This document shows positions 3,204 to 23,309 of a stretch of DNA of 58,765 bases, one piece after another. The notes below the pieces were generated by a model, which saw nothing but the letters and a program-made list of their open reading frames with translations, did no database searches and had not been told where the DNA came from. The stretch is from a virus (Duplodnaviria > Caudoviricetes). The stretch is taken from positions 1 through 58,765 of the IMG/VR virus record IMGVR_UViG_3300049828_000243; one strand, written 5' to 3'. Numbering within the stretch: the first letter of the stretch is position 1; the number at the start of each line of letters is the position of its first letter. The position numbers were made by a program, and so were the translations under genes.

Positions 3204-4561
3204 CAGTAGAAATACTCAGTGATGGTGTTGAAGCGGCCGGTCCAGTTGATCGTCGTCGCGGCGGCGCCGGTCACGTCGAAGCGCAGTGACTGAGTTCCGA
3301 CGTTGACGGATACCGCGAGCGCCCACGTCGTAGCGCCAGCGTCTTCGCCGATCTCGGTCACGGTTGGCGTACCGACAAGGGCGATGTTGCCGCCGGTGTT
3401 CCGCTTCACCATGCCCTCAACCTTCCACGACTTGGCATCTGTCGCAGAGCGCGCAGACACGATGCCGGTGAACGTGTACGAATATCCCTCAATGATGTCG
3501 AGTTCTCCGTACGTCACTGCGTCGCGGTAGAACTGCAGGTAGGTCGGCGTAGCATCCGTCGTCTGTGCGTACTGCAGAAAGTGCCCGCAGTCGGCGCCGA
3601 ACGATACGCCGTCGTCCCAGCTATGCATGATCGAGTTGGGCAGCCCAGCCCATCCGCCGCTTCCGAGCGCTACAGCTCCGCGCGCCGTAGCGTATGCAGC
3701 GAACCCCACAGCAGTTGCGAACGCGAAGCCGACGCCGGCGCCCCGGCCGATAACCGTCGCGCCTTCCGAATCGATATTCGTGGTTGCTTGGTAGCCGACC
3801 AGTACGCAGGACGGGCTGTTGGTCCCGGTCTGTGCTGCCGGTCCGACCACGACAGAATTTTCGCTCGTCGCTTGCACAATCGCCCCTAAGCCTACGGCCA
3901 CGCTGTGATCGCCAGCGCACGTAGCGCTGGCGATCGCTGCTGAGTTGGCACCGGACGCGGATGCGCTACTGCCGACCGATGTAGAACCGTACCCCGTAGC
4001 AGACGCAGAGTGGCCGAACGCGACAGTATAACCGTCTGTCGCGGCGGCCCCGATGCCGACGGCGAGCGCGCCTGTATTTGTTCCGAGGTTGACCAAAACT
4101 TCCTTCCATGCCGCTGCGCCAACAGTTTCAGTCGTGCACACCCACTCCCGCGCGCCGTATATCCAGCGCGAACCGACGTGGTAGCCGTCGTCGGAGTCGT
4201 CGTTGACCGTAGGTGCTGCACCGGCTGCAAGGTTGTGCTTCATGCGTACGAGGTCTGCGCGACTGGCAACTACGCCACACGCAAGCGTCTTGTTTCCGGG
4301 AGCCCAGCTCACAGCTAGGTTGCTGTTACTAGATTTCAGGATCGTCGTGCGCGCAAGCGTGCTCGGTGACGTGTACGTGCCGACGAACAACTCGTATCCG
4401 CCTTCGCCGTCTTCGACGTAGAAGATGCCAGTTTCGCCGTTAGCGAAACCGGAAGTTACGGACAAGAAGCCAGTGGCCGGCAAAGCGCCGACGGTGTAAC
4501 TGCCGGTCCCCTCCGTAGTCACAGTTTCTTTGACGCGATCAACCAAACGTGGAGCTGCCAT
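3203..4561 (-). CDS. Tail fibre / receptor-binding protein with YadA-head-like repeats
   Basis: N-terminal DRVKET tail-attachment-like segment; about 14-aa repeats such as AVGIGAAA, VAFGHSASA, AVGLGA, AVGFAAYA; likely start at MAAPR. Confidence 0.75.
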   Translation of the reverse strand: MAAPRLVDRVKETVTTEGTGSYTVGALPATGFLSVTSGFANGETGIFYVEDGEGGYELFVGTYTSPSTLARTTILKSSNSNLAVSWAPGNKTLACGVVASRADLVRMKHNLAAGAAPTVNDDSDDGYHVGSRWIYGAREWVCTTETVGAAAWKEVLVNLGTNTGALAVGIGAAATDGYTVAFGHSASATGYGSTSVGSSASASGANSAAIASATCAGDHSVAVGLGAIVQATSENSVVVGPAAQTGTNSPSCVLVGYQATTNIDSEGATVIGRGAGVGFAFATAVGFAAYATARGAVALGSGGWAGLPNSIMHSWDDGVSFGADCGHFLQYAQTTDATPTYLQFYRDAVTYGELDIIEGYSYTFTGIVSARSATDAKSWKVEGMVKRNTGGNIALVGTPTVTEIGEDAGATTWALAVSVNVGTQSLRFDVTGAAATTINWTGRFNTITEYFY

Positions 4562-8148: not shown

Positions 8149-9406
8149 CTACGCCTCGCCCTTTGAGATTGACCATGATGTGCCGCTGGCCCATGTACTC
8201 GCGAAGAATAGACGCGCCGCGCGACGAACTTGGCGCAGTGTAGCTTGCTTCGGTGAGCGGCGTTACCGAACCACTCGCGCTACCGGCGCAGAACACGCCG
8301 TTCGATGCTACCCACACTGGCATGCGCGAAGCTTGTTCTCCGCCGAAAATGGTGCCGCGCGCGAACACCTGCGAGCCGACGACTGCGCCATGCGGGTACA
8401 CGATGGTGCGGCGCATCTTCTTCGGATCATCGCCTTCCATGTAGTACGTGCGCTTTCCAGCGGCGATGAACAGTCCGCCGGATGACCCTTCACTAGACGG
8501 TGCGAGCAGCGAAACGTCGTCGTCGAACCGGATGTAGTTGCGAGTCGGATCGTAGTAACCGTAGCGGAGCGCGTCAGACCAGTAGAGCATGCGCCCGCTG
8601 GCGACCCACAAACGCCCGTTATAATACGCGACGATGTGGCCCGGCGGCAGCGGTTTGAGCCACAGCGTGTCGAGCGTGCGCGTAGTGTGGCCCGCAGCAC
8701 CGATGACCACTTGCGACGACCCGTTCACGACAGACCGTTTAAGGAACAGCGTCTCGCCGTTGCAGTCAGTGACGTACACGCCGACGCTCGTCACAGTAGG
8801 GTCTGCAGACTGCGACATACTGCCGACCATGATGCCTTGGCCTTCCGCAACATCTACGACGGCAGGCTGGCAAGCGCCGGACTCTTCGCCGTTCGACGCG
8901 ATGTACGTCGTGGCGACGATGTATGAACCTTCGTGCAGCCCGCCTACGCTGTGCGCAGATACGTTCGGAGTGCCCGGGGCTTCGATGCCGAGCGGCAGCG
9001 CCTCGAGAGCCGCTGTGATGCGACCAGAGCGCTGCCGATTTGACCAGTAGACCGTGCGGTCCACGACCTCGTACGACACAGGCACAACGTGCCCGACACC
9101 GGTTACGAGCGGGGTAGTGTTGTAGTCGGAGTCGATGGCGACAAGCGCACTGTCGATGACTGCAAGCATGTACGGGAAGTCGGGCGCCGACCACAACGAG
9201 TGCGCAGAGCCAGCGATAACGCGGCTGTACCCGGCGCGGCGCTTAACGCGACCGTCGCGGTCAAAGTCGACGTTCTCAGCTTGGCGCACGCGGTACGGCG
9301 GCACCGATTGTTCGCGGTTTACGTTGTCGATGCCTTGAGCTGCGTCGCTACCGGGAGGCGGAGCGACGGGCAGCACAGTGCGAAGCTGGCCGTTCTCGAC
9401 AGTCAT
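8081..9406 (-). CDS. Tail nozzle/stabilisation-type protein
   Basis: GIDN...AENVD...G...RRAGY N-terminus and beta-propeller-like strands, after the adaptor gene. Confidence 0.6.
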   Translation of the reverse strand: MTVENGQLRTVLPVAPPPGSDAAQGIDNVNREQSVPPYRVRQAENVDFDRDGRVKRRAGYSRVIAGSAHSLWSAPDFPYMLAVIDSALVAIDSDYNTTPLVTGVGHVVPVSYEVVDRTVYWSNRQRSGRITAALEALPLGIEAPGTPNVSAHSVGGLHEGSYIVATTYIASNGEESGACQPAVVDVAEGQGIMVGSMSQSADPTVTSVGVYVTDCNGETLFLKRSVVNGSSQVVIGAAGHTTRTLDTLWLKPLPPGHIVAYYNGRLWVASGRMLYWSDALRYGYYDPTRNYIRFDDDVSLLAPSSEGSSGGLFIAAGKRTYYMEGDDPKKMRRTIVYPHGAVVGSQVFARGTIFGGEQASRMPVWVASNGVFCAGSASGSVTPLTEASYTAPSSSRGASILREYMGQRHIMVNLKGRGVDGFRARDSVVATVVRNGVVVDQ

Positions 9407-9409
9407 GTG

Positions 9410-10111
9410 TCACCAGTCCATCTTGATTCCGCCGCCGCCGCGACGCCGCTGGCGGCGCAGTGCGAGCTGGCGGTCAAGCGCTTGCGACTTGAACATGCCG
9501 TAGTACCCGACGCTGCGCGACAGGTCTTGCGCTTCCGCGTCATGCTTCTGGTAAGCGCGGTACTTCATGTACATGACGAGCAAGTTCTGGTCAGTCGGAT
9601 GCAAGAACGGCACCGGTGCGCCAGAAGCCATTGGCGCGATGCTGTCTACTACGACCTGTAGCTCGAGGACGTCGTCGTCCGTCGGGGTCGGCACGAGGCG
9701 CAGAGCATTCTTGGCGAAATCGCGAACGTATTGACGCGGAAGCCCAGTCGTGTTCGTCAGCGTCACGCCGGTGAGGCCGTAATCGGTCGACGGCGTGGTT
9801 GGGAATTGGTTTGCAGTGCTCGGCTGTACCTGAGTGTCAGTGCCGACAATGCGCGCTTCGCGCACGTCCATGACAGAGCACGGCAGACGCACGTCTGATT
9901 CACCAGCCACGATTGGGCGGGTGAGCACGCGGTACAGGCCGCGCGTCTCTTCGGACAACGCGGCGCACGCTTCGGTCATGTAACCGTAAATCTCGGCGTC
10001 CTTCCACAGACAGTCGCCATCGTCCGTCTCGGTCAACGATCCGCCGGCTGGCAGATCGTCGACTTCCTGACGGAAGACTGTGAGCAGCTCGTCCGCAGTC
10101 GAGACGGTCAT
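9410..10111 (-). CDS. Head-tail adaptor protein
   Basis: W-x-D-x-E-I-x-x-Y N-terminal helix and L-x-x-Y-x-x-Y-x-AY-x-K-x-D C-terminal motif of podovirus adaptors; position after the capsid genes. Confidence 0.65.
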   Translation of the reverse strand: MTVSTADELLTVFRQEVDDLPAGGSLTETDDGDCLWKDAEIYGYMTEACAALSEETRGLYRVLTRPIVAGESDVRLPCSVMDVREARIVGTDTQVQPSTANQFPTTPSTDYGLTGVTLTNTTGLPRQYVRDFAKNALRLVPTPTDDDVLELQVVVDSIAPMASGAPVPFLHPTDQNLLVMYMKYRAYQKHDAEAQDLSRSVGYYGMFKSQALDRQLALRRQRRRGGGGIKMDW

Positions 10112-10113
10112 GG

Positions 10114-10686
10114 TTACGCAGCCACGCCCGACAACCGGACAAGCAGAGTCTTGCGAAGAGCCTTGGCGTCGAGACCAGTGTAGTTGGCCTTGTTAGCCTC
10201 GAAGTCAGTGACGAACTCGGCTGCGAGGTCCAGCAAGTCGCGCTTGCCTTCCGCACGAACGATCTTGAGGATGTTCGCTGCTGCAGGGTGCAGTACGTAT
10301 TCGCGGCCTTCCGACTTGAACGCATGGTACTCGCGGAACACGTTGACGACTTCTTCCTTCGTCACGTCGAAGCCGACGCGTTTTTCGACGGCCGTAACAG
10401 ACGGCGAGCCGCTGCCGTCGAACTCCTTGATGTTGTTCTCAGCGACGATCTCGGAGATCGCAAGGTGCAGAATCGAACGACGAGCGTCGCCGGCGAAATC
10501 GACCTTGGCGCGGCCTTGTTCCTCGAAGAACGGAAGCTCGTCTGCGTTGACCGGTGCGGCGCCGTTCTTCATCGCTTCCTGCACAGCGGCGTCAGGTACG
10601 AAGGTTGGCTTTCCTGCTGAAAAAACGACGACGTGGCCCGACGTAGACGCCAGACGGAAATTGCGGAGAGAGTGCATGAGCGGCAT
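10114..10686 (-). CDS. Hypothetical protein (head-completion region)
   Basis: AAGGA RBS before ATG at 10686; phage-like codon usage. Confidence 0.6.
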   Translation of the reverse strand: MPLMHSLRNFRLASTSGHVVVFSAGKPTFVPDAAVQEAMKNGAAPVNADELPFFEEQGRAKVDFAGDARRSILHLAISEIVAENNIKEFDGSGSPSVTAVEKRVGFDVTKEEVVNVFREYHAFKSEGREYVLHPAAANILKIVRAEGKRDLLDLAAEFVTDFEANKANYTGLDAKALRKTLLVRLSGVAA

Positions 10687-10707
10687 GACATTTTCCTTGT
10701 AGTAGAT

Positions 10708-10741
10708 AAAAAAGCGCCGCAGGGTTTGGTCCCTGCGGCGC
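10708..10741 (-). terminator. Intrinsic terminator after the capsid/decoration genes
   Basis: GCGCCGCAGGG-accaaa-CCCTGCGGCGC followed by TTTTTT on the minus strand. Confidence 0.85.
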
Positions 10742-10773
10742 ATAATGTACCGCACCGCGCGGCACCGCCCAAA

Positions 10774-13497: not shown

Positions 13498-15606
13498 TTA
13501 CTTTCCTTTGTTGGGCGATTTGTTGCCGGGCTTATTCGCGCCCGGTTTGCCTTGGCTACGGCGAGCCGCCGCAGCCTCGGTGCGACGCGCGGCGAGGTCA
13601 GCGACCTTCACCGCGAGTTCTTTTTCAGCAAGTTCACGGTTGTCGTCAACCTGCTTTTCCTTGATGCGCAGCTCTTCGGCGCGGGAGATGGCGTCCGTCT
13701 CGATGCGCGCGGTCTCGATGCGTTCGTACGAGGCGTCCGGATCGCGAGTCGCTTCACCTTCCGCTTTCGCTGCACGAGCGTCGTTGAGGCGGGCAGCGGC
13801 GACTTCTTTCGCGGTCTTGGCGGCGGCGAGCTTGGCTTCCTCGTCCAGACGCTTCTGCTCGGCGGCGGCTGCGGCCTGCTGCACGGCGTTCGAGTCCTGC
13901 GACAGCTTCTGGATGATCTGAGCCTTGTTCGCGGCGGGCGACAGCTCGATGAGCATGGCGTCCGGGATGGCGATGCCGATATCGCGGCGCAGGCTGAGGA
14001 TCGTCTCGAAGTCTTCGGCGCTGATGGTCGTGCGCACCGGTGCAGGCACGAGCGTAGTCGTGTACCGGCCGCGAGTCACGTCGTTGAGCGTGCGCCCTTC
14101 TGCGGTCGGCTCGTTGAGGCTTATCGTCTGCATGTCAGGAACAAGCGACGTGCCGCGGTTGATCATGATAGCCCGCGTCTCAGTGTAGTGGGCCTGCACG
14201 CAATCGCGCACGCGCTCAGCTACAAGCTGCTTCGAGCGGTGCAGATTGGACAGCCAGCCGGCGAAATTGACGTCCTGCGCCGCTTGGTTGGCGAGAATGG
14301 CTTCACCAGCCACGTCCTCGCGTGCGAAGCCGCGCGACCCTTCGGACACGCCGGCCAGTGAACGCATGATCTTGTCTGCCTTGAACGACAGGCGGTCGTG
14401 CCCTTGCGGAGTCTGACTCGGCTGCAGTTTCTCAAGATCGTCCACGTTCTCGAGTTCCGCAACGAAGCCGGGCTTGGCGCCTAGGTTCTCAAGGTCTTCG
14501 ACGGACATGTTCTTCAACGAGCCGGCCTTGAGCTTGTACCCGCTGTTGGCGACAGTGTTGATGATCGCAAGCTCTTGCGACGTGATCTTGTTGAACAGCT
14601 CCTGCGCGCCGAGCAGGTGCTCGACCACGCCAGACGGAACGCCGTCGATGAACGACGGGAAGTACGGCACGATGGTGAACCACCGGTACGGGCTGTCCTC
14701 ATTGTGCAGAACGTAGTCTTCGCACGTGACGACCCAGCGCACCGTGTTGACGTTCTTGTACGTCGTGCTGAGTCCCGGCACTTTGCGGAGCACGTCAGCT
14801 ATGCGGTTGCGATCCCACGTCTCCGGCACTTCCGACATGTCGCCAGTGCGTAGATCGACGAACACAAGCTTGCGCTTGACCTCGCGGTACTGGCGCTCGA
14901 CAAGCAAGTGGCCGCGCACCTTGGACTCGTCAGCCATGGGCGAGCCACGGTAATACGGCATGCGCCCCATCTGCTGCGCCATGAGCTGGTCTTCATAGTC
15001 GTACCAGCTCGGCACGGACGACGCGCCGATAGCGTTTGCCGCAGCGTCGCCATACAAAGAACGGATGTCGTTCTGGCTCACCCAGCGGCGTTGGATAACT
15101 TGCGGCCATTCGTCCGGGTCGTACGTCTCGATGGTAGGGTCGAGCAGCACGTCTTGGCTGCGCGGAGAGCGGATGATGACGTTGCCTTGGAATGAGTCGT
15201 CGTACGACACGCGAACGTCGTAGTACGCGCGGCCGAAAATGAGGCCCTTCTCGAACACGTCTGTTTCGAGGAACTCGAAGCGATTCGCGTTCTGGATATG
15301 CATCCAGATCGCGTCGTGCACTGCGGCGTCTTCCGAAGTGGCGTCCTTGAACGGTGTGAAGCGCACGTCGTTGCGCAGTGCGCGCTGCACGCCTTTCATC
15401 GAGCGCGTCAGCGACTCGATAATGTTGAACGTCAGCGCCGGGCGCTTGGCGTTCTCCAGCTTGCGCCGGGTAGACGCGTCCCACTGGTTGCCTTTCCAGA
15501 ACTCGAACGCGCGATGTGCTCCGACAACCCAGTCCTCGTGACCGTTGTCGTAGCAGTACCGATAGTTGTCGTACTGCGTGCGGGAGATGTCGCTGTCGGT
15601 CGCCAT
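13498..15606 (-). CDS. Portal protein (P22/N4-like)
   Basis: 702 aa; GNQW...RPALTFN, AQELFNK and SG motifs; coiled-coil C-terminus; follows TerL. Confidence 0.9.
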   Translation of the reverse strand: MATDSDISRTQYDNYRYCYDNGHEDWVVGAHRAFEFWKGNQWDASTRRKLENAKRPALTFNIIESLTRSMKGVQRALRNDVRFTPFKDATSEDAAVHDAIWMHIQNANRFEFLETDVFEKGLIFGRAYYDVRVSYDDSFQGNVIIRSPRSQDVLLDPTIETYDPDEWPQVIQRRWVSQNDIRSLYGDAAANAIGASSVPSWYDYEDQLMAQQMGRMPYYRGSPMADESKVRGHLLVERQYREVKRKLVFVDLRTGDMSEVPETWDRNRIADVLRKVPGLSTTYKNVNTVRWVVTCEDYVLHNEDSPYRWFTIVPYFPSFIDGVPSGVVEHLLGAQELFNKITSQELAIINTVANSGYKLKAGSLKNMSVEDLENLGAKPGFVAELENVDDLEKLQPSQTPQGHDRLSFKADKIMRSLAGVSEGSRGFAREDVAGEAILANQAAQDVNFAGWLSNLHRSKQLVAERVRDCVQAHYTETRAIMINRGTSLVPDMQTISLNEPTAEGRTLNDVTRGRYTTTLVPAPVRTTISAEDFETILSLRRDIGIAIPDAMLIELSPAANKAQIIQKLSQDSNAVQQAAAAAEQKRLDEEAKLAAAKTAKEVAAARLNDARAAKAEGEATRDPDASYERIETARIETDAISRAEELRIKEKQVDDNRELAEKELAVKVADLAARRTEAAAARRSQGKPGANKPGNKSPNKGK

Positions 15607-15609
15607 GTT

Positions 15610-17511
15610 TTACGCTGCCATGTGGTCGCTGCGCGCGGCAGCCAATGTTTTGAGCTGGTCTTTCCAGCTTGAATGTTTTTTGGGCGGTGCTTGCGCGCGG
15701 GGTAGAGCGATATTCAGAGCCAGACGAGACCCCCAAGCCAGCGCGTCGACGATGTCATCGTGCGCGCCGTCCGGGAAGCGGAGCATTTCGCGTTCGGCCG
15801 CATCATACACGTCCGGGCGAGTGTCGCCATCATACGAGAAAAACAGCTTGTGACGCTGCGTGCGGATTTGCAGCGGGCGGGCGCGCACCGACTTGTCCGT
15901 AATAGGCACGAGCGTGTCGTTCACCGACACGAACGTACGCGAAGTAGCCGGGTTTGCGAGCAGGGCCGCCTTGATCGCCGGCCACACCGCTTCGTGGATC
16001 GCGCCTTGCTCGCCGGCGTAGATTTCCGGCTTGTGGCGCTCAACCATGGCTACGACGTTCGCAGCTATGTCGAAAGTCGACCACCGGCCGCGGCGAATCT
16101 CCAGCACGTACAGGTTGTCCTCGGCGTCGAGCGCGAACGCTGCAAGCACAGTGAAGTCGTTGCGCTGTTTCGTGCCGATGGCGTAGTCCGCCGTGATGAA
16201 CACGCGGCACAGCGGCCGGTACGCCGGGTCGAGCCAGCGATACTTCAAGTCATCTTTCTTGAAGTAGTCGCCGTCGTCTGGCGTTGGCGACTGCTGGTAC
16301 AGCGCGTTCCAGATGGACGAAGACGACGAGTTGCGAATCTTTTTCAGCTCGTTGAGCGGGTAGCGCTCCGGGTGAAGCGCCTCGCCGCGGCGCCGCAGCA
16401 GGCGCACGGAATCCTCCGGCGTGTCATGGCCGATTGTGCCGTCGCGCATCAGATACTCGTCGTGCTCCGCAATTGCGGGGTACGACACGATCTCCCAGTT
16501 CTCGCGCTCGTACTCGGGCACGCCGGCCTTGATCTGTTCGACCTCTTGATCGATCAGCCGGCCAGACGGATCGGCGTAGTGCCAGCGGGTGTTGATGACG
16601 AGGATGCCGCCGCCCGGCGCGACGCGCGTGCGGAACACGGACTGGTACCACTTGAACGTGTTGTCGCGGATCAGCTCGGAGTCCGCAGCCTCTTGGTCCT
16701 TAATCGGGTCGTCCATGATCAAGCAGTGACCGCCGAAGCCGGTAAGGCCTACGCCTACACCGGCTGCCTTGTATCCGCCGCCTTTGACAGTCTCCCACTC
16801 CTCGACGCCCTGCGCGTCCTTGCGGATGCGCGTGTCGGGGAAGATTGCTTGGTACTCGGCGGAGCGCAGGCGGTCGCGGATGCTGCGGCTGAAATCGATT
16901 GGCAGCGACTGGGCGTAGCTCGAAGCGATCACCTTCCACTCGGGATGGTGACCGAGCAGCCACGACGGGAACATGTCGGACGCAAGCTGCGACTTGCCGG
17001 CGCGCGGCGGCAAGAACAGCATGAGACGCGGTGACTCGCCCTTCTCGATGCGCTCCATGAACCGTTCGAGCCGGCGGCAGATGTCTTGGTGCACCCATCC
17101 AGCCTTGTAGTCCGGCATCATCAACTGGGTGAAGTAGATAAGGCGACGACGAGCAATCTCGCGGCGCGCGATCTCGCGCTGGACAACCTCTTCGCGCGTC
17201 TCCGGAATGATGACGCTGGCCGGCTCTACGAGCAGCAGTTTCTGCACGGGCGAGCGACGCGCCTCCGGCACTCGGCCTGCCGCGAACACGGCATCGGCGA
17301 TCTCCGGCGTGCCGTACGCGCCGTAGCGGCGGTACAGCGCCAGCGTGCCGTCGCGGTTCTCGCAGTCGACGCAGAAGTCCATGTACAGCGTCTCGGGCGC
17401 CGTCGCGTAGACGCGGAACATGTTGAGCGCGCAGTTGCGGCCGCATGCGCGGCAGTCTGCCGCCGTCAGTTCACCGAGCGACGGGCGTTTCAGCGTCTTT
17501 TTTGACGACAT
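15610..17511 (-). CDS. terL: Terminase large subunit
   Basis: Walker A PPRAGKS, Walker B LIMDDP, TRWH, YQQ-x-P, nuclease motif FPDGAHDDIVDA. Confidence 0.95.
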   Translation of the reverse strand: MSSKKTLKRPSLGELTAADCRACGRNCALNMFRVYATAPETLYMDFCVDCENRDGTLALYRRYGAYGTPEIADAVFAAGRVPEARRSPVQKLLLVEPASVIIPETREEVVQREIARREIARRRLIYFTQLMMPDYKAGWVHQDICRRLERFMERIEKGESPRLMLFLPPRAGKSQLASDMFPSWLLGHHPEWKVIASSYAQSLPIDFSRSIRDRLRSAEYQAIFPDTRIRKDAQGVEEWETVKGGGYKAAGVGVGLTGFGGHCLIMDDPIKDQEAADSELIRDNTFKWYQSVFRTRVAPGGGILVINTRWHYADPSGRLIDQEVEQIKAGVPEYERENWEIVSYPAIAEHDEYLMRDGTIGHDTPEDSVRLLRRRGEALHPERYPLNELKKIRNSSSSSIWNALYQQSPTPDDGDYFKKDDLKYRWLDPAYRPLCRVFITADYAIGTKQRNDFTVLAAFALDAEDNLYVLEIRRGRWSTFDIAANVVAMVERHKPEIYAGEQGAIHEAVWPAIKAALLANPATSRTFVSVNDTLVPITDKSVRARPLQIRTQRHKLFFSYDGDTRPDVYDAAEREMLRFPDGAHDDIVDALAWGSRLALNIALPRAQAPPKKHSSWKDQLKTLAAARSDHMAA

Positions 17512-17962
17512 AGAAGTCTCCGTCGATTACGTTGGCGTCGCCTACGAGGCGCGCAAGCTCTTCGTCTGACATGCCGCGCGCACGGTCGCGAATCACCTCG
17601 ATGGTAGCCGTGATGTTGACGTTCGTCTTTTCCGCTTCGGCGAAGCCGAGCAGTTTTGCGACTTTCTCCAACCCGACAAGCTCAGTCATTGGCTCCGAGA
17701 TGATGCGCGCGCGATCCACGGCATCCATCATCTTCTGGACGATGTCTGCCTTGGTGAGCCCCTGCGTGTCGTTGAACGCCTGCCGCGCCTTGCGGCGTGC
17801 TTCCATGACGTGTGGCGCTGTGATCGAGCCGAGCGGTATGCCGGTTACGCCCGCCGCAGCGCGCGCAGGCATGTTCAGAACTTCGACGTGGTAGACGAAG
17901 TCGATCTCTTCACGGGTAAGGCCGCTTGGAACGGCCAGCATGGTCGGATCAGTGATTGCCAT
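17471..17962 (-). CDS. Terminase small subunit (putative)
   Basis: Helical 163 aa protein immediately upstream of TerL; AKLLG and MSDEEL motifs. Confidence 0.7.
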   Translation of the reverse strand: MAITDPTMLAVPSGLTREEIDFVYHVEVLNMPARAAAGVTGIPLGSITAPHVMEARRKARQAFNDTQGLTKADIVQKMMDAVDRARIISEPMTELVGLEKVAKLLGFAEAEKTNVNITATIEVIRDRARGMSDEELARLVGDANVIDGDFYVVKKDAETPVAR

Positions 17963-18602
17963 CGTCCATTTTCCGAATCGTGCCGATCCATCGCTTCGGC
18001 ACGCCTTCGTTCGGGATAGGCGTAGCCGTGACCTCTACGCGCAGGACGGCGCCGTCAGCGCGGATCATGTCGTGAACAATGACGTACTGACGACGTTCCT
18101 CGCGACACGCCTCCCACTCGTCGCGCACACGCTCGCGGTCGTACGGGGCCACGAAAGTCAGAAAACCCCACCCAAGCAACTCTTCTTCCGTGCGCTGCAA
18201 CCACCGGCAGTAGGTCTTGTTCACCCACACGTTCATGCCGGTCTCGTCGCAGTCGAACAGCGCCCGATTTGGGTCGGTGTCGTTGTCCACGCGGCGCGTC
18301 TCGGAGAGAAGAAGCACCTCAGACATCAAGTCGTCAAGCTTACGCTCGCTGCGCGACACGGAATCGCGAAGGCTTGTACCGCCGTTGGGCATGACCTCTT
18401 TGGCGATTAGGCTGAGCGTCTTCTGCATGCTCTCGACGTTCTGTGACGACGCTAGCATGTGAGGTACCGAAGACAGCGACCGTATACCGTCCAAATAAGG
18501 CACGACATGCGGACGCACGAACCGAATGCCGGCGACGACAGCGCTGATAAGCGCAATCCATTTGAGCGTCGGCTCGAGCCACAGCGGGGCAGAGTGCATC
18601 AC
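17949..18602 (-). CDS. Membrane-anchored PAS-domain protein in the lysis cassette
   Basis: N-terminal TM, PNGGTSLRD linker, then PAS/PAC pattern LFDCDETG..VWVN..YCRWLQRTEEELLG..FL..VAPYDRERV..W...RADG..V..TATP..WIG. Confidence 0.8.
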   Translation of the reverse strand: MMHSAPLWLEPTLKWIALISAVVAGIRFVRPHVVPYLDGIRSLSSVPHMLASSQNVESMQKTLSLIAKEVMPNGGTSLRDSVSRSERKLDDLMSEVLLLSETRRVDNDTDPNRALFDCDETGMNVWVNKTYCRWLQRTEEELLGWGFLTFVAPYDRERVRDEWEACREERRQYVIVHDMIRADGAVLRVEVTATPIPNEGVPKRWIGTIRKMDDGNH

Positions 18603-18898
18603 TGCGTCACCCCTTCGTTCGACAAGCGGTCAAGGCACATGTGGCAGGCGGCGCGACGGCGTTCACACTCACGCACCTTGTCGGCGAGCGTCACAGTGAC
18701 ACCTTCGGACAATGCGTCCCATGTCTCGGACGCATAAGCGTCGCCAACCCAGCGGAGGCCTGTGTCGCCGTCTTTCTCGACGCACGGCGTGAAGCACAGC
18801 GAGCTGCACCCGTTCGCCGGCGGTTCTGGTTTGGCAGCTTGCTCTTTGCAAGCTGCGAGTAGAAGTACGACCAATACCGCCGCGATACGCATGCTCAA
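18599..18898 (-). CDS. o-spanin (Rz1-like lipoprotein)
   Basis: Lipobox LAAC, Pro/Cys-rich periplasmic part, directly downstream of the i-spanin. Confidence 0.8.
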   Translation of the reverse strand: MSMRIAAVLVVLLLAACKEQAAKPEPPANGCSSLCFTPCVEKDGDTGLRWVGDAYASETWDALSEGVTVTLADKVRECERRRAACHMCLDRLSNEGVTQ

Positions 18899-19263
18899 TC
18901 TCCGGTAGCAGGCCCAAGGTGGGCGTTCACGGCGTCCATGCGCGCCGTACCGGGGCCGCAGTCTACCGGAAGAGGCGCCGCAACGGCTGCGTCCCTGTAG
19001 ACGACGCGGGTTTTGCGGGAGCGCTCAGCGATAAGCGCCAAGTCGCCAAGCAGCGCCTCGTGGTCTTCGCGACCGCCTGCGACAAGCTTGCTGGACGTTT
19101 CAAGTGCGAGACGTTGCGCTTCGATGGTCGCCTCGTCCTTTGCAGTTTGCACCGCCGACGCGGCCTTAGCGTCCGTGCGACCCATAAAGTACAGCGCTGC
19201 CGCGTTGCCGATGAGAGATAGCGCGAGCGCGACAATAAGCGCCGGGATAAGCTGGATTTTCAC
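18895..19263 (-). CDS. i-spanin (Rz-like)
   Basis: N-terminal TM, coiled coil and C-terminal Cys; follows the endolysin. Confidence 0.8.
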   Translation of the reverse strand: MKIQLIPALIVALALSLIGNAAALYFMGRTDAKAASAVQTAKDEATIEAQRLALETSSKLVAGGREDHEALLGDLALIAERSRKTRVVYRDAAVAAPLPVDCGPGTARMDAVNAHLGPATGD

Positions 19264-20048
19264 TGGAACTCCTTCGCCACGCGGGCTTCATCTTTGCGGC
19301 GGTTGCACAAGCCGGGCACGTCGGGCCATATACGGCACATGGCGATCAGCTCACGAGCGATGCAGTGAGCGTCCGCTGCCGGCACGCACTCGTCGCGGAT
19401 CGTGCGCATTTCGCGGCGACGGTCGCCGGACATGGCGCCGCCGCGGTTGTAGACGAGGCTTACCAGCGCAGCATGGGCGCCGTCCGGCAGCTTGTCGAAT
19501 GACGGGCCAAACGCCCGCCTTGCAGCGAGCGTGTAGTCGGGCACGGTACGGCGCAGGAACACGTCGTACGCGTAGTCGTAGCTCGTGACAACGTCGCGCC
19601 ACTCGGCGATGCGCCGCTTGGCCTCTGACCCGACAACGCCGGACGTGGTCTCTAAGCGCTCGACAGCGATGTGCTCCGCCCACACGTCGGCGATGTATCC
19701 GCGCGTCTGCATGCCGCCGTCGAAACCGATGGCCCACGTCGGGCCGCTGGTGCCGCCGGGGTATACGACGCCGGAGTAGCGGCGCGTGTACGTCGACGCG
19801 CTGGTCACTTCCCAACGAACGATCAGTTCGGCTGCGAGTTCATCGCGGCGCGAGCTGCTGCGAGGCTCGGGAACACCAGATACCGCGGCGGGCTCGGCAA
19901 GCTCGCGGGCGGCAACAATGACAGGGACAGCGGAGGTTGCGACGGCAATGCGAGCCGAATCGCCTGCGTCAGCGATGTCAGTTTGTTCACAGCCGCCTCC
20001 GGTCAGCGCGAGAAGAACGCAAGCAACGACAAGAACGTAGCGAGCCAT
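19260..20048 (-). CDS. Endolysin (lysozyme-fold muramidase) with N-terminal signal/anchor
   Basis: LIVRWE...SGPTWAIGFD...ALVSLVYNRG...GLCNRRKDEA lysozyme-like motifs; hydrophobic N-terminus. Confidence 0.85.
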   Translation of the reverse strand: MARYVLVVACVLLALTGGGCEQTDIADAGDSARIAVATSAVPVIVAARELAEPAAVSGVPEPRSSSRRDELAAELIVRWEVTSASTYTRRYSGVVYPGGTSGPTWAIGFDGGMQTRGYIADVWAEHIAVERLETTSGVVGSEAKRRIAEWRDVVTSYDYAYDVFLRRTVPDYTLAARRAFGPSFDKLPDGAHAALVSLVYNRGGAMSGDRRREMRTIRDECVPAADAHCIARELIAMCRIWPDVPGLCNRRKDEARVAKEFQ

Positions 20049-20356
20049 AGGATTGAGTCCGTGATGTAGACGATGAGAGGGCCTTTCCAGCCAGTCGTCA
20101 CTTTATGCCAGTAGTCCTCTTTTTGTGCGTCCGTCATCTTGTGGCGCTGCCGACGGCGGACAAGGAACGCAATGGCAAGCGCTACGACGGCGTAAGCGCT
20201 ACGGATTGGCAGCTCGACAAGCTGCGACAGCATGTCAGTGCCTGCGGTGCGGTCGAGCGCGCCGAGCACGATCCATGACGCGACGGCGATGCCGACGACG
20301 ATAGGCAGCCACAGGAAATGCTCCTGCCAGCGGACCAGATATGCCTTGATGCCCAT
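20003..20356 (-). CDS. Holin (putative, about 3 TM)
   Basis: 117 aa with three hydrophobic segments and a basic loop; overlaps the endolysin start. Confidence 0.65.
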   Translation of the reverse strand: MGIKAYLVRWQEHFLWLPIVVGIAVASWIVLGALDRTAGTDMLSQLVELPIRSAYAVVALAIAFLVRRRQRHKMTDAQKEDYWHKVTTGWKGPLIVYITDSILWLATFLSLLAFFSR

Positions 20357-20385
20357 GACAATGTCCTCTGTTTGGTTGGATCAGG

Positions 20386-20865
20386 TTACCAGAGCCGGCA
20401 ACCGTTGGTAGCGGCGCGCAGATTGAGCGCTCCAGCGCCGAAGAACACGCCTGCGTACTTGGCATCGCCGGCGTGGCTGAAACCGTCCGGCGACTGCGCC
20501 GCGGCATCGCGCCACCAAGCGAGCCATAGGCCTTTAAACAGCAGCACGGCGACTGGGTTACGCATTGCGGCGTTTGTCTCGGCGCAGCCGGCGTTGCGCA
20601 TGGCGCCTGTGCTAATTGCGTCGGCGACGTTGCCCCACAGAAGCAGGCGGAACGCCTTGCGCTCGCCGTCGTCGTAACTCGGTTCGAACCATTTCTTACG
20701 CAGAATAGCCGTACGCTTCGGGTCCAAGTGTTGCTCGTTGACGATAGCGACACGCTTGTCGCTCCACACGATTACGTCGCCGTTGTCGTGATACTCGGCA
20801 GTGATCGGCTTACTGCTGGCGCACGCGCCCAACAGTAGGCATGCGAGCGTCGTACGAACCGTCAT
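20386..20865 (-). CDS. Lipoprotein of unknown function
   Basis: MTVRTTLACLLLGAC lipobox; ATGA-coupled to the upstream gene. Confidence 0.6.
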   Translation of the reverse strand: MTVRTTLACLLLGACASSKPITAEYHDNGDVIVWSDKRVAIVNEQHLDPKRTAILRKKWFEPSYDDGERKAFRLLLWGNVADAISTGAMRNAGCAETNAAMRNPVAVLLFKGLWLAWWRDAAAQSPDGFSHAGDAKYAGVFFGAGALNLRAATNGCRLW

Positions 20866-21650
20866 TCCAGTTCTCCTAGTGAACGGATCGAGCCGCCATC
20901 GTACAGCCACGATACCTCGCCGGCAGTTAGGCGCTTGCTGACAATGAGCAGCTCGTTGAACGTGTGCTGGATTGTGCCCGCGCCCATGAACGAGTAGAAC
21001 TCAACCCTGTGGTCCACGTCTCCTGCCACAGATGGCGCGAACGTATACGCAGACACGTCTATTGTCGCTTCAAGGTACGCGTCGATGTACACCTCGACGA
21101 CAGTCGGTGTTTTGACCACTGTGATGTAAGGCTGGATGCCGCCGTTGCCGATGGTTTTGCTGAACGTAGCCGCTACAGCGCCGGCTGCGTCGTACACGTT
21201 GATCGTTACCGCCCGCCCGATGAATGAAAGCGCTCCGCGGCTCGCAGTAGACAGTACCTCGATAAGCGGCGACACGGCGGTAGCGTCGCGGTAGTACCGC
21301 AGCGCCGGCTTATTGGTATAGCTAGTACTCGTACCTTGGCTACCTTCAACAGTCAACGAGAAAGACACGGCTACCTCGTCGGTGCCAAAATTGTCGACGC
21401 CGGGGGCGTACGGCCACGTGCCTTGGTACGCCGCGCACATGCCGTCTGCCGTCGCCGTCGCGCCGTTCGCGCTCGGTTCAAACGTGGCGCTGAACGGAAT
21501 TGGTCCGTCGTATTCAGACGGCCAGTTGCCGAACTCGTCCTGAACGTCGAAAGTCCACGTGCTTTGCGTGAAGTAGCGGATGGACTCGGCGTAGTCCGCC
21601 TCGCTGCGCGTCGCAACCGCGATGTCTACGCCGTGCCCAAGCCGCGACAT
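20862..21650 (-). CDS. Head-spike fibre-like protein with concanavalin A/LamG-like domain
   Basis: MSRLGHGVDI N-terminus; VYIDA...FNELLIVSKRLTAGEV..LY LamG-type C-terminus. Confidence 0.55.
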   Translation of the reverse strand: MSRLGHGVDIAVATRSEADYAESIRYFTQSTWTFDVQDEFGNWPSEYDGPIPFSATFEPSANGATATADGMCAAYQGTWPYAPGVDNFGTDEVAVSFSLTVEGSQGTSTSYTNKPALRYYRDATAVSPLIEVLSTASRGALSFIGRAVTINVYDAAGAVAATFSKTIGNGGIQPYITVVKTPTVVEVYIDAYLEATIDVSAYTFAPSVAGDVDHRVEFYSFMGAGTIQHTFNELLIVSKRLTAGEVSWLYDGGSIRSLGELE

Positions 21651-21651
21651 A

Positions 21652-21903
21652 TCAGCGGCTTCCGATGATCGCTGCCGAGGCGGTTGTTTCGTACACCATG
21701 TCGACGAGGAAAGGCACAGTGAACGCCGCTGGTGCGGTGAACGACACGTCGTTGCCACTCGCCGACCGGCACTCGATGAAGCCGCCGTCGATAGACGTGA
21801 CGTGGATCGGCGGATCGTAGACGGTAGTGTTGCTGGGGGTCAGGTTAAAGCCGTCGAGCGGCATCGACGTGATGGCCGAGCCGCTTGGGGAACGATTGGA
21901 CAT
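21652..21903 (-). CDS. Spike base protein-like (RcGTA Rcc01079-like)
   Basis: 83 aa; F-x-LTPSNTT...G..V.F....VP..V..VY.T pattern recalls the GTA spike base. Confidence 0.55.
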   Translation of the reverse strand: MSNRSPSGSAITSMPLDGFNLTPSNTTVYDPPIHVTSIDGGFIECRSASGNDVSFTAPAAFTVPFLVDMVYETTASAAIIGSR

Positions 21904-21909
21904 GGCGAT

Positions 21910-21958
21910 ATGCTCCGGGTTGGCCGGAGCATTATGACCAATCGCGAGCTGCGCGCAA
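21910..21958 (-). promoter_or_regulatory. Candidate promoter overlapping an RBS-sequestering hairpin
   Basis: TTGCGC-N16-CATAAT; 9-bp stem ATGCTCCGG/CCGGAGCAT contains the GGAG RBS of the gene starting at 21903. Confidence 0.5.
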
Positions 21959-21972
21959 CTTATAGCGCGCCG

Positions 21973-22233
21973 TCAACACTCGCACGCATCTACGTCAACT
22001 ACGGTGCTCACGGCTGTAACCGTAGTAGCGCCGGCGTTTGGTGAGACAGACACGCTCGCAGCGGCGCGGTTAACGACGACCGACGAAGCTGCACGGTTAA
22101 CGACTACTGCACCTGCAACAGTTACTGGCGCGACTGACAGTACAGGCGTAGTTACGTCGACGGAGTCGGCGCATCCTGACGCTGCGGACGCAGAGCTTAG
22201 CAGGCCGTCTGTCACGACCGCCAAGCTGTTCAT
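21973..22233 (-). CDS. Small Val/Ala/Ser-rich structural protein
   Basis: 86 aa, coupled to the upstream gene, internal VVVNRAA duplication. Confidence 0.55.
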   Translation of the reverse strand: MNSLAVVTDGLLSSASAASGCADSVDVTTPVLSVAPVTVAGAVVVNRAASSVVVNRAAASVSVSPNAGATTVTAVSTVVDVDACEC

Positions 22234-23309
22234 GGCGCGCGAGTCACTGTGCTGCTGGTCACTCCGTTCCCAGTGACCGCCAAGTCTATCTCGGGTGAGC
22301 CGCTGTCGCCGACGTAGATACGGCTAGCCGTGGCAGTCAGCGGCGCAGTAGCGTCGAGCCCGGCGCGCTGCCACAGCTCGCGAAGCATAGCTACTTGGTC
22401 TGGCGACAATCCGCCTGCGCCGGCCGTGTTAAGCAGCTCGCCCATTGTACCGGCGTCTGCAAACGCTGACGCCAACGCGCCCCATACCGCCTGAGCGACG
22501 TTACTTGTGTCGAGCACGTCGCCACTTGAGCTGATGTCTGCATTGAGCGCGCCTTTTGCCGTTGCTGCGGCCGTGACTGCGCCGCTGGCAGTGATCGCCG
22601 CGACGATGTTGCCGAGCGATACAAGTGACGCGGACACTGCGCCCGATCCGGTCAACCCGGCCTGCATCGGCCAAGTCGCGAGCATGTCGCCGGATGCGCC
22701 GCCACCGCCAGTCAGATCGGCCGTGATTGCCCCGAGTGCGCTGACCGCGCCAATGAGGTCGCCACTGCCAGCAAGCCCTGCGGCGGCTTCAAGCGCGCCC
22801 GCAAGTGACGCCGCGAGGTCTCCGTTGGCGGCAATCGTAGCCGCGATGTCCACGACCGCGTTCAGCGTGCCAGACACGTTGGCGCTGCCGGTCAGTCCGG
22901 CGACCGCTTCGAGTTTTCCGGTGATACCGGCGGTGATCGTGCCGGCGCCTGCGAGCGCAGCAGTCGCGACGATGATCCACGCAATTGCCGCCGTGCTGAT
23001 GCCGCCACTACCGGTCAAGTCGGCTTCGGCGTTGAGACCGCCAGCAAGGTTTCCGTACGTAACGTCGCCTGTGCCGTATGTCGACGTGTACGTCGCCATG
23101 CCTCCGGGCTTGGTCGGCAGTATCCACGCGCTCGGGTGCAAGTGCCCGTTCGGAATCGCCGACGTTGCCGAAACGCTCGCTTCGCCAGCGTAGAAGTTGC
23201 GCAGCGCGCCGGACAGCAGCCAGCGCGCGCGCTCTTGGCTACCCGCGCTAGCGCCACCCATGGTCCGCATGGGCTGGCCTCCGAACCGCATGCCGTTGCC
23301 GACGAGCAT
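22230..23309 (-). CDS. Gly/Ala-rich repeat virion fibre protein
   Basis: Repeated A-x-LTGSG / LAGAG units at about 20-aa periodicity. Confidence 0.65.
   Translation of the reverse strand: MLVGNGMRFGGQPMRTMGGASAGSQERARWLLSGALRNFYAGEASVSATSAIPNGHLHPSAWILPTKPGGMATYTSTYGTGDVTYGNLAGGLNAEADLTGSGGISTAAIAWIIVATAALAGAGTITAGITGKLEAVAGLTGSANVSGTLNAVVDIAATIAANGDLAASLAGALEAAAGLAGSGDLIGAVSALGAITADLTGGGGASGDMLATWPMQAGLTGSGAVSASLVSLGNIVAAITASGAVTAAATAKGALNADISSSGDVLDTSNVAQAVWGALASAFADAGTMGELLNTAGAGGLSPDQVAMLRELWQRAGLDATAPLTATASRIYVGDSGSPEIDLAVTGNGVTSSTVTRAP

Follow-up and report, generated by a model that had tools for sequence, protein, structure and literature searches.

We found that a gene at the end of the lysis gene cluster of a tailed phage (Duplodnaviria; Caudoviricetes) encodes a small, membrane-anchored protein whose C-terminal part, predicted to be cytoplasmic, is a PAS domain. 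The protein belongs to a large unstudied phage family that repeatedly sits beside cell-wall-cutting enzymes; hence, by inference from sequence alone, it may let a phage tune when it bursts its host. The gene lies in IMG/VR record IMGVR_UViG_3300049828_000243, of which the whole 58,765-nucleotide stretch was analyzed (hereafter, the window). The initial annotation described holin, endolysin, i-spanin, and o-spanin genes followed, with 4-nt stop/start coupling, by a 217-aa protein with one N-terminal TM, a linker containing PNGGTSLRD, and a PAS domain without an output domain, the 3' end of its gene overlapping TerS; this observation was confirmed at the sequence level, although the names of the neighbors are less secure. 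Its interpretation, that a holin/antiholin-like protein has acquired a sensor through which lysis timing or packaging-lysis coupling responds to host physiology, was only partly supported.

The gene occupies 17949-18602 on the minus strand and follows, on the same strand, ORFs at 20003-20356 (117 aa), 19260-20048 (262 aa), 18895-19263 (122 aa), and 18599-18898 (99 aa); it is itself followed by ORFs at 17471-17962 (163 aa) and 15610-17511 (TerL; phrog_38, E 5.7e-104). With the longest-ORF starts, the endolysin/i-spanin, i-spanin/o-spanin, and o-spanin/TM-PAS junctions each overlap by 4 nt. At the last of these the DNA reads GTGATG, so that the start is either the GTG at 18602 (217 aa, 4-nt overlap with the TGA stop) or the next ATG at 18599 (216 aa, 1-nt overlap), with GAAGGGG 8-11 nt upstream; the database copy, P0001, starts at the ATG. 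The 3' end overlaps the next ORF by 14 nt. A scan of positions 17000-22500 gave no promoter-like site and no terminator-like site on the coding (minus) strand, while the six sites on the plus strand compare with 4.4 expected, which is uninformative though compatible with one operon.

The 99-aa o-spanin candidate has a lipobox (LAAC, Cys17) and matches phrog_11951 'Rz-like spanin' (E 2.8e-5) over residues 1-28 only. The 122-aa i-spanin candidate is assigned by an N-terminal TMD (residues 1-17) and its position between the endolysin and the o-spanin, without a Pfam or PHROG family match. The 262-aa endolysin candidate has a hydrophobic N-terminal signal or anchor (residues 1-17) and only a weak Phage_lysozyme match (E 0.021, below the cut-off), helped by a homologue at E 9e-4 (6092-6751 of L028, one of the loci carrying family members, which are numbered here with the prefix L); a PDB sequence search with it gave no hit at E ≤ 1. 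The 117-aa holin candidate is assigned by three hydrophobic segments (residues 13-29, 46-62, and 93-109) and its position upstream of the endolysin, and it has no family match and no charged C-tail. The putative small terminase (17471-17962) is assigned by position only, with no Pfam hit and a match to phrog_29190 'unknown' (E 0.0017).

The TM-PAS protein contains a single N-terminal hydrophobic segment (a 17-mer at residues 12-28, KD 1.56; the anchor at about residues 13-30 corresponds to 18513-18566), which lies within helix 5-43 of the AF2 model (mean pLDDT 89.8). The PNGGTSLRD motif (residues 72-80; 18363-18389) forms the turn of a helical hairpin between helices 46-70 and 76-107; in 30 sequences Pro72, Asn73, Gly74, Gly75, and Ser77 are nearly invariant and Asp80 is invariant. 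The PAS domain (residues 113-211; 17970-18266) is supported by PAS_3 (PF08447) at E 1.9e-11 and 44.5 bits against a cut-off of 25.6 over residues 125-209, with PAS_9, PAS_4, and PAS also above their cut-offs. Profile and structure prediction had been named beforehand as checks on the PAS assignment, and the model agrees: residues 113-211 adopt a predicted PAS fold, a five-stranded antiparallel sheet with flanking helices, at a pLDDT of about 97, and Foldseek gives at least 500 PAS-type PDB hits at E ≤ 1e-3, for example 3lyx at TMt 0.83 and rmsd 2.1. No other domain follows, so there is no output domain. The predicted topology is N-out/C-in: among the 124 of the 150 top representatives that are 150-270 aa, 120 have an N-terminal hydrophobic 17-mer with KD ≥ 1.2, the mean K+R is 0.56 before it and 3.3 in the 15 residues after, and 113 of the 124 have more K+R after the segment.

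The first ~100 residues are homologous to a very abundant family of ~100-aa phage proteins. The profile of the PAS form against that of the PAS-less short form gave an hhalign probability of 99.2% (E 3.5e-19) covering the whole short form, and the window's protein matches phrog_9869 'unknown' over residues 43-93 (E 1.4e-4). The short family, in which an N-terminal TMD is followed by a helix, a nearly invariant PNGG(S/T)S(L/M)xD turn, and a second helix, has at least 2008 clusters at E ≤ 1e-3 among 8000 scored, and none of the 120 listed has a Pfam domain. The PAS domain looks like an add-on to this older module; the PAS form is kept across hundreds of clusters (470 hits at E ≤ 1e-10), and the hairpin-PAS unit is duplicated in tandem in the proteins P0026, P0064, and P0065. 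Database homologues share the same architecture. Megablast of the cassette and tblastn of the protein against 50,697 phage records gave no match, a second short form likewise gave none, and of the cultured phages only the Thermobifida phage P1312 was found. A single-protein scan of viral contigs found nothing, so that alignment-based scans were needed there, and an ESM Atlas search with residues 1-110 gave no usable hit. A word-index search for short relatives with the same residues gave none, whereas the short-form profile then succeeded.

The initial annotation also stated that TM plus PNGG(S/T)S(L/M)xD proteins recur beside phage lysins, and a survey of gene neighborhoods bears this out. 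Both forms sit beside endolysins of at least six Pfam/PHROG-verified types. An endolysin lies directly beside the gene in many loci, and the enzyme family differs between them: GH24 SAR type (Pfam E 3.6e-11 and phrog_7); the window-type lysozyme in L028 and L091; Peptidase_M15_3 in L014, L015, L029, and L106; GH108 in L037; GH25 in L065; amidase types in L064 and L066; the phrog_6523 endolysin in L047; and the annotated amidase of P1312. Of 75 evaluable 90%-identity clusters, 24 have a seed-type endolysin within 1.2 kb and none has one between 1.2 kb and the locus end, although the seeds were found near the gene, which is an ascertainment bias, and 51 have none nearby. Unbiased Pfam tallies agree: 150 sampled near neighbors (within two genes) gave 10 Phage_lysozyme, one GH25, and one M15_3, and 150 far neighbors (four or more genes away) gave none of these among the 25 families listed, but the near signal is dominated by one lineage (10 of 12 hits), so the events are not independent. 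Small ORFs with at least two TMDs are enriched at +1 (14 of 95, against 16 of 621 at offsets of four or more; odds ratio for near versus far 3.3, p 2e-4), though our gene and TM calls are crude. DUF5675 (L042 and L049), Peptidase_M23 (L056 and L058), and the 'c47' family were observed as other candidate wall enzymes but were not counted. Nor was the ~308-aa neighbor of group B, whose fold model is of low confidence (pLDDT 54); its papain-like matches at TM 0.4-0.5 agree with its sequence motifs but do not show that it is an endolysin.

Linkage is strong in the window's subfamily but is not universal. Many distant members lie beside an integrase (L033), a helicase (L044), an HNH endonuclease (L049), a DNA polymerase exonuclease (L039 and L056), a neck or structural protein (L069 and L032), sigma-like proteins, or T4-like replication genes, and L018 has the gene between structural genes with no endolysin. 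In related podophages, the gene moves with the lysis cassette. Relatives with 46% TerL and 50% capsid identity carry it inside the head-gene block, directly upstream of a SAR endolysin and spanins, whereas the window has an empty site there (9406-9410, minus strand, from the synteny of L024 and L022 with window ORFs 10114-10755 and 9410-10111) and keeps the gene with its own, different lysis cassette. In nine closely examined relatives (L002, L017, L021, L024, L025, L026, L019, L004, and L022) the order is TM-PAS, SAR endolysin, then i-/o-spanin, with no other small multi-TM ORF. The window's nearest cultured relatives by TerL are KPP25-like podophages at 41%, and the KPP25 region around TerL has no equivalent gene.

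The closest analogue is the Mu releasin gp25 (DUF2730/PF10805; Chamblee et al., mBio 2022, PMC9239132), rather than the holin or antiholin proposed initially. Mu gp25 has one N-terminal TMD in an N-out/C-in topology, with basic residues at the membrane junction and a helical cytoplasmic domain, and occupies the same slot: endolysin, i-spanin, o-spanin, then this gene, then TerS, TerL, and portal. DUF2730 proteins are found within a few genes of endolysins of several enzymatic classes, with or without secretion signals. In the window the TM-PAS gene is the third gene after the endolysin, within the five genes downstream expected of a releasin, but in relatives it is usually immediately upstream of the endolysin instead. 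The SAR endolysins of the holin-less relatives have N-terminal tails of 8-27 residues with 1-9 K/R, and in Mu gp22 basic tail residues are what made release gp25-dependent. However, no homology is detectable: hhalign of the PAS-form profile against gp25 gave 0.8%, no DUF2730 hit appeared even at E ≤ 1, and the precomputed Pfam domains of relatives list only PAS families or none, so that membership is rejected and only the analogy is kept. The PNGG(S/T)SLRD turn is absent from gp25, the hairpin is not anionic as in gp25 (K+R 11.7 against D+E 9.4), gp25 lacks the PAS domain, and the present family is not confined to Mu-like transposable phages. A complex prediction for the L024 TM-PAS protein with its SAR endolysin returned no answer (score 0.00, without controls) and is no evidence either way.

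In the case of the antiholins (T4 RI and RIII, lambda S107), accessory proteins of the lysis cassette likewise set lysis time, and T4 RI couples lysis to superinfection, a precedent for signal-dependent control. However, RI has a releasable N-terminal anchor and a periplasmic domain that binds the holin, opposite to the topology predicted here; S107 is an alternative start product of the holin gene; none is known to have a PAS domain; and the Pfam and PHROG scans, the only homology tests applied, name no antiholin family. A PAS-based phage sensor controlling the decision to lyse already exists in VqmA of vibriophage VP882 (PMC8284805), which ties the killing of the host to a small-molecule cue, but it is a soluble PAS-HTH transcription factor acting on the lysis-lysogeny decision, without the PNGG module. 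The PAS fold is also shared with membrane-anchored bacterial sensors, as Foldseek matches include the NifL FAD-PAS (2gj3), Aer (8dik), and FixL (2vv6/1d06) at TMt 0.7-0.8; those proteins have kinase, HAMP, or signaling outputs and known cofactors, whereas here the PAS is the C-terminus, no cofactor residue pattern was identified, and the presumed output is the N-terminal TM-hairpin module. We found no paper describing a PAS protein inside a lysis cassette.

Our preferred reading, to which we give a probability of about 0.5, is that the gene encodes a bitopic inner-membrane protein, with a few residues outside and the hairpin and PAS domain in the cytoplasm, in which a common, unnamed phage module works as an accessory component of the lysis cassette at the cytoplasmic face of the membrane. 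In this view, the module would resemble Mu gp25, helping a membrane-tethered or exported endolysin to get free, or would regulate the holin from the cytoplasmic side, and the PAS domain would be a switch, by ligand, redox state, or dimerization, that sets when the module acts, making lysis timing depend on the state of the host cytoplasm. The architecture, the PAS fold, the homology of the two forms, and the linkage to endolysins are established by the analysis, whereas the topology, a role in lysis or endolysin release, any effect on lysis timing, cofactor binding, and sensing are inferred from sequence and structure prediction alone. The window has its own holin candidate, so the gene is not needed to explain lysis here, and packaging-lysis coupling was set aside because it rests only on the 14-nt overlap.

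Other explanations appear less likely. The protein may be a late-expressed, membrane-tethered PAS protein with a role other than lysis, such as superinfection exclusion, host takeover, or signaling, that merely tends to be inserted at lysis-cassette borders, which are frequent insertion sites for accessory 'moron' genes; the 51 clusters without a recognized lysis gene nearby, the varied other neighbors, the gene of L018, and the window's gene being last in its cassette at the border with the packaging genes fit this view. It is at odds with the tight coupling on both sides, with the position in relatives between structural genes and the SAR endolysin, where the gene overlaps the endolysin start and is thus inside the cassette and not at its outer border, with the adjacency to at least six unrelated endolysin families in phages with GC from 0.5 to 0.7 and in a cultured actinophage, and with the 12 against 0 near-versus-far tallies; we regard it as unlikely but the strongest of the alternatives.

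Less likely still, the protein may act in lysis while the PAS domain only dimerizes or scaffolds without carrying a physiological signal. The PAS is a generic PAS_3, its best PDB sequence matches are ARNT-type and 'sensory box' PAS domains at E 1e-6 to 1e-4, no cofactor motif stands out, and PAS-less forms occupy the same slot, so the module works without PAS; however, the PAS domain is the best conserved part, and its retention and tandem duplication are weak evidence for more than a spacer role. Least likely, the protein may itself be the hole-forming or depolarizing protein, a holin or pinholin substitute with PAS-controlled oligomerization, in cassettes lacking another holin, since in the nine relatives it sits where the holin usually is. 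Yet it has one weakly hydrophobic segment and a ~190-aa cytoplasmic domain with a predicted folded PAS C-terminus, whereas known holins are small membrane proteins with one or more TMDs and short charged C-tails that form lethal membrane lesions; no holin family appears for it in Pfam or PHROGs; the window and L028, L029, L090, L091, and L106 have separate multi-TM holin-like ORFs beside it; and Mu shows that a holin-less SAR cassette can instead use a non-lethal releasin.

A wider reading, which we hold to be doubtful, is that the TM-PNGG module is a new, very widespread class of lysis-control factor, a non-homologous counterpart of the Mu releasin or a cytoplasmic-side holin regulator, used by phages of Proteobacteria and Actinobacteria alike. 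In the PAS-fused branch, which includes this phage, the moment of lysis would then be gated by a cytoplasmic cue such as redox or energy state, oxygen, or a metabolite, a post-translational, sensor-driven lysis clock that has not been described. Lysis timing sets phage fitness and is thought to be fixed by holin accumulation, with T4-type lysis inhibition as the main signal-dependent exception; a sensor domain fused to a lysis-cassette membrane protein would be a direct route for host physiology to change burst time, and would offer practical handles such as ligand- or redox-tunable lysis modules for synthetic biology. As the PAS-less module is one of the more abundant unnamed small phage proteins, assigning it a role would improve the annotation of many phage genomes, would widen the releasin idea beyond Mu-like phages, and would give a testable explanation for SAR-endolysin cassettes that have no holin.

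The window is a whole IMG/VR virus record of 58,765 b, which is estimated to be 92% complete and in which no tRNA was found, and by TerL its nearest cultured relatives are the Pseudomonas podophages phiR18 and KPP25, at 41% identity. A run of tightly packed ORFs lies on the minus strand, in which tail-like genes are followed by a 174-aa predicted lipoprotein (20386-20910), a 117-aa protein with three hydrophobic segments (20003-20356), a 262-aa protein with a hydrophobic N-terminus (19260-20048), a 122-aa protein with an N-terminal TMD (18895-19263), a 99-aa lipoprotein (18599-18898), the 217-aa ORF under study (17949-18602), a 163-aa ORF (17471-17962), TerL (15610-17511), and the portal (13498-15606). 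The three junctions from the endolysin candidate to the 217-aa ORF each overlap by 4 nt; at the last one the DNA reads GTGATG, with GAAGGGG upstream, and the last 14 nt of the 217-aa ORF overlap the start of the next ORF.

The names of the neighbors rest on uneven evidence. TerL is solid (phrog_38, E 5.7e-104), and the o-spanin candidate (18599-18898) has a lipobox and a PHROG "Rz-like spanin" hit to its first 28 residues. The endolysin candidate (19260-20048) has only a sub-threshold Phage_lysozyme hit (E 0.021), although a homologue in L028 (L-numbers designate loci that carry a member of the family) scores E 9e-4, and a sequence search of the PDB gave no relative. It belongs to a poorly characterized lysozyme-like family, and its strongly hydrophobic N-terminus, which ends in GGGC, may be a signal peptide, a lipoprotein signal, or a releasable anchor. 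In contrast, the holin (20003-20356), i-spanin (18895-19263), and TerS (17471-17962) are positional names supported by hydrophobic segments only. The 174-aa predicted lipoprotein just upstream of the holin candidate has a lipobox LGAC at Cys30 and matches no Pfam or PHROG family.

The initial annotation described the 217-aa product as a protein with one N-terminal TM, a linker containing PNGGTSLRD, and a complete PAS pattern, and this observation is confirmed. Pfam gives PAS_3 at E 1.9e-11 (44.5 bits against a cut-off of 25.6) over residues 125-209, and three further PAS models are above their cut-offs. An AlphaFold2 model built on 30 relatives, with a mean pLDDT of 89.8, shows helix 5-43, helix 46-70, a turn at 71-75, helix 76-107, and then a PAS fold at 113-211 with a pLDDT of about 97. 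Foldseek finds PAS domains throughout the PDB, such as 3lyx at TMt 0.83, the NifL FAD-PAS, Aer, FixL, and LOV proteins, as well as two full-length "PAS domain [uncultured Caudovirales phage]" proteins in BFVD. A profile search of PDB sequences gave only generic ARNT-type and "sensory box" PAS matches at E 1e-6 to 1e-4, and nothing points to a particular cofactor. The PNGGTSLRD motif comprises residues 72-80 at the hairpin turn, where P72, N73, G74, G75, and S77 are nearly invariant and D80 is invariant across 30 relatives. The single hydrophobic segment is located at residues 12-28, and the positive-inside rule is clear across the family. Of the 150 best representatives, 124 are 150-270 aa, and among those, 120 have an N-terminal hydrophobic 17-mer; the mean K+R is 0.56 before it and 3.3 in the 15 residues after, and 113 of 124 have more K+R after. 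The predicted topology is therefore N-out/C-in, with the hairpin and the PAS domain in the cytoplasm, as inferred from the charge distribution alone.

We found 7 relatives of 190-235 aa with the same build by a word-index search, whereas an exhaustive search returned 3956 proteins at E <= 1e-3, 470 at E <= 1e-10, and 14 at E <= 1e-30, many of the weaker ones being ordinary multi-PAS kinases. Of the 124 short proteins, 91 carry a PNGG-like motif as defined by a regular expression, and three proteins of 365-396 aa from the exhaustive search (P0026, P0064, and P0065) carry one N-terminal anchor followed by two tandem copies of the PNGG-hairpin plus PAS unit. A pattern scan of viral contigs also brought in proteins of about 85-150 aa that stop after the hairpin, and others like them lie in actinobacterial genomes. 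A profile of seven such short forms matches the N-terminal 95 residues of the PAS forms at an hhalign probability of 99.2% (E 3.5e-19), and this profile finds 2008 clusters at E <= 1e-3 among 8000 scored candidates. None of the 120 listed clusters has a Pfam domain, and the source names are "hypothetical protein" or evident misnomers. Hence, the anchor plus hairpin is an abundant, unnamed phage module, and the PAS domain is a C-terminal addition in one part of the family.

The initial annotation had itself proposed that homologues not linked to lysis genes would refute its reading, and the neighborhoods were examined as that test. The close relatives share about 40% identity with the window protein, 50% in the capsid protein, and 46% in TerL. 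In these relatives, the gene lies directly upstream of, and overlapping, a GH24 endolysin, followed by an i-spanin with an embedded o-spanin. The endolysin scores Phage_lysozyme E 3.6e-11 and phrog_7, and it has a basic N-tail and a Gly/Ala-rich hydrophobic segment, which are SAR features. In nine loci inspected ORF by ORF, there is no other small multi-TM ORF in the cassette. That cassette sits inside the head-gene block of these related podophages (L024:4842-6563 and L022:4977-6816), whereas the window has the flanking homologues directly abutting at 9406-9410 and keeps its copy with a different cassette ahead of the packaging genes, the endolysin and spanin architectures also differing (embedded versus separate). 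The gene therefore travels with the lysis genes, whatever they are.

In other loci, the adjacent enzyme varies. The window's lysozyme type, with a holin-like ORF between, was observed in L028 and L091; Peptidase_M15_3 in L014, L015, L029, and the L106 group; GH108 in L037; GH25 in L065, a short form; amidases in L064 and L066, also short forms; and a phrog_6523 endolysin in L047. In the cultured Thermobifida phage P1312 (KT021004; L082), gene P1312_040 at 3767-4210 is annotated as "sensory protein kinase CreC", but it is in fact a 147-aa TM + PNGG short form that ends 4 nt inside the start of the N-acetylmuramoyl-L-alanine amidase gene, and the annotation is probably wrong. In four loci (L071:4102-4827, L074:1471-2217, L073:5480-5926, and L078:104-622), a ~145-250-aa family with an N-terminal SDGTIGDxAHxxRxSDHN motif lies directly beside the TM-PNGG gene; it has no Pfam hit and only phrog_32486 "unknown", and it may be an unrecognized cell-wall peptidase. 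In addition, DUF5675 proteins lie 1-1.8 kb from the family gene in L042 (6466-7011) and L049 (2584-3084), and one of them shows an H...S-x-G-C-I pattern, the L,D-transpeptidase (YkuD) catalytic motif; they may be another lysin type.

Of 193 metagenome matches, 80 were kept. Our rough gene calls found the family ORF in 131 loci, which form 102 clusters at 90% identity, and 75 of these were evaluable, meaning at least 1.2 kb on both sides or a hit. Among the evaluable clusters, 24 have an endolysin of one of the verified seed types within 1.2 kb (GH24 15, M15_3 4, window-type 2, GH108 1, GH25 1, and amidase 1), and none has one between 1.2 kb and the locus end. Some loci were dropped because the gene calls missed the family ORF, including L017, L019, L021, L047, and L064, which do have adjacent endolysins; the count is biased because the seeds were found next to the gene. 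As an unbiased check, we sampled 150 of 226 neighbors within two genes and 150 of 398 neighbors four or more genes away and scanned both sets against Pfam. The near set gives Phage_lysozyme 10, GH25 1, and Peptidase_M15_3 1, but the far set has none of these among its 25 most frequent families; only the first 25 of 53 and 66 families were listed, and singletons may therefore be hidden. Small ORFs with two or more hydrophobic segments are also enriched just downstream, with 14 of 95 at +1 against 16 of 621 at offsets of four or more; for near versus far, the odds ratio is 3.3 (p 2e-4).

However, several results run against the reading of a role in lysis. No seed-type endolysin was seen in 51 of the 75 evaluable clusters, and ten of the twelve near-set hydrolases belong to one lineage, so the events are far from independent. 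Distant members lie beside an integrase (L033), a helicase (L044), an HNH endonuclease (L049), DNA polymerase exonucleases (L039 and L056), a neck protein (L069), a virion protein (L032), sigma-like genes, and T4-type replication genes, and L018 has the gene between structural genes with no endolysin. In a ten-locus marine-like group with a GC of about 0.4 (L043, L050-L055, L061, and L063 among them), the gene is followed by a 70-75-aa holin-like protein with two weak TMDs and a charged tail, and then by a ~308-aa protein, such as L051:5464-5676 and L051:5679-6608, respectively. The larger protein has papain-type Q/C/H/NSWG motifs, a low-confidence predicted papain-like fold, and no recognized lysin domain; hence, the group was not counted as lysis-linked. 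L060 has a Peptidase_S8 subtilase in the same slot, and these proteins may be peptidase-type lysins.

The closest analogue is the Mu releasin gp25, a 99-aa N-out/C-in protein with a 73-residue cytoplasmic domain, which is encoded after the SAR endolysin and spanins and before TerS, TerL, and portal, the same order as in the window (Mu record and PMC9239132). In Mu, which has no holin, gp25 is needed to free a SAR endolysin whose N-tail carries basic residues, and DUF2730 proteins pair with diverse endolysins, with or without secretion signals (PMC9239132). All of these features have parallels here. Membership, however, fails: there is no DUF2730 hit even at E <= 1, hhalign against gp25 gives 0.8%, and the cytoplasmic part of the present protein is not anionic. 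It would work like a releasin at best; it is not one. A complex prediction for one TM-PAS and SAR-endolysin pair returned no answer and carries no weight. Compared with holins, the protein has one TMD but also a large folded cytoplasmic domain, whereas the T4 RI-type antiholin has the topology opposite to the one predicted here. VqmA of VP882 shows that phages do use PAS receptors to decide on killing (PMC8284805), but that protein is a soluble transcription factor. Full-text searches on PAS domains in connection with holins, endolysins, antiholins, lysis cassettes, lysis timing, and phage-encoded sensors, which do not cover subscription journals, found nothing describing a PAS protein in a lysis cassette.

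The proposal in the initial annotation that a holin/antiholin-like protein has acquired a sensor that lets lysis timing respond to host physiology is partly supported. The fusion of a sensor-type domain to this module, and the genuine though not universal association of the module with lysis genes, are established by the sequence analysis, whereas the mechanism, including any sensing, endolysin release, or holin regulation, is inferred from anatomy and neighborhood only. In this view, to which we assign a probability of about 0.5, the protein would be a lysis accessory factor at the cytoplasmic face of the membrane, releasin-like or holin-regulating, whose action would be gated by the PAS domain.
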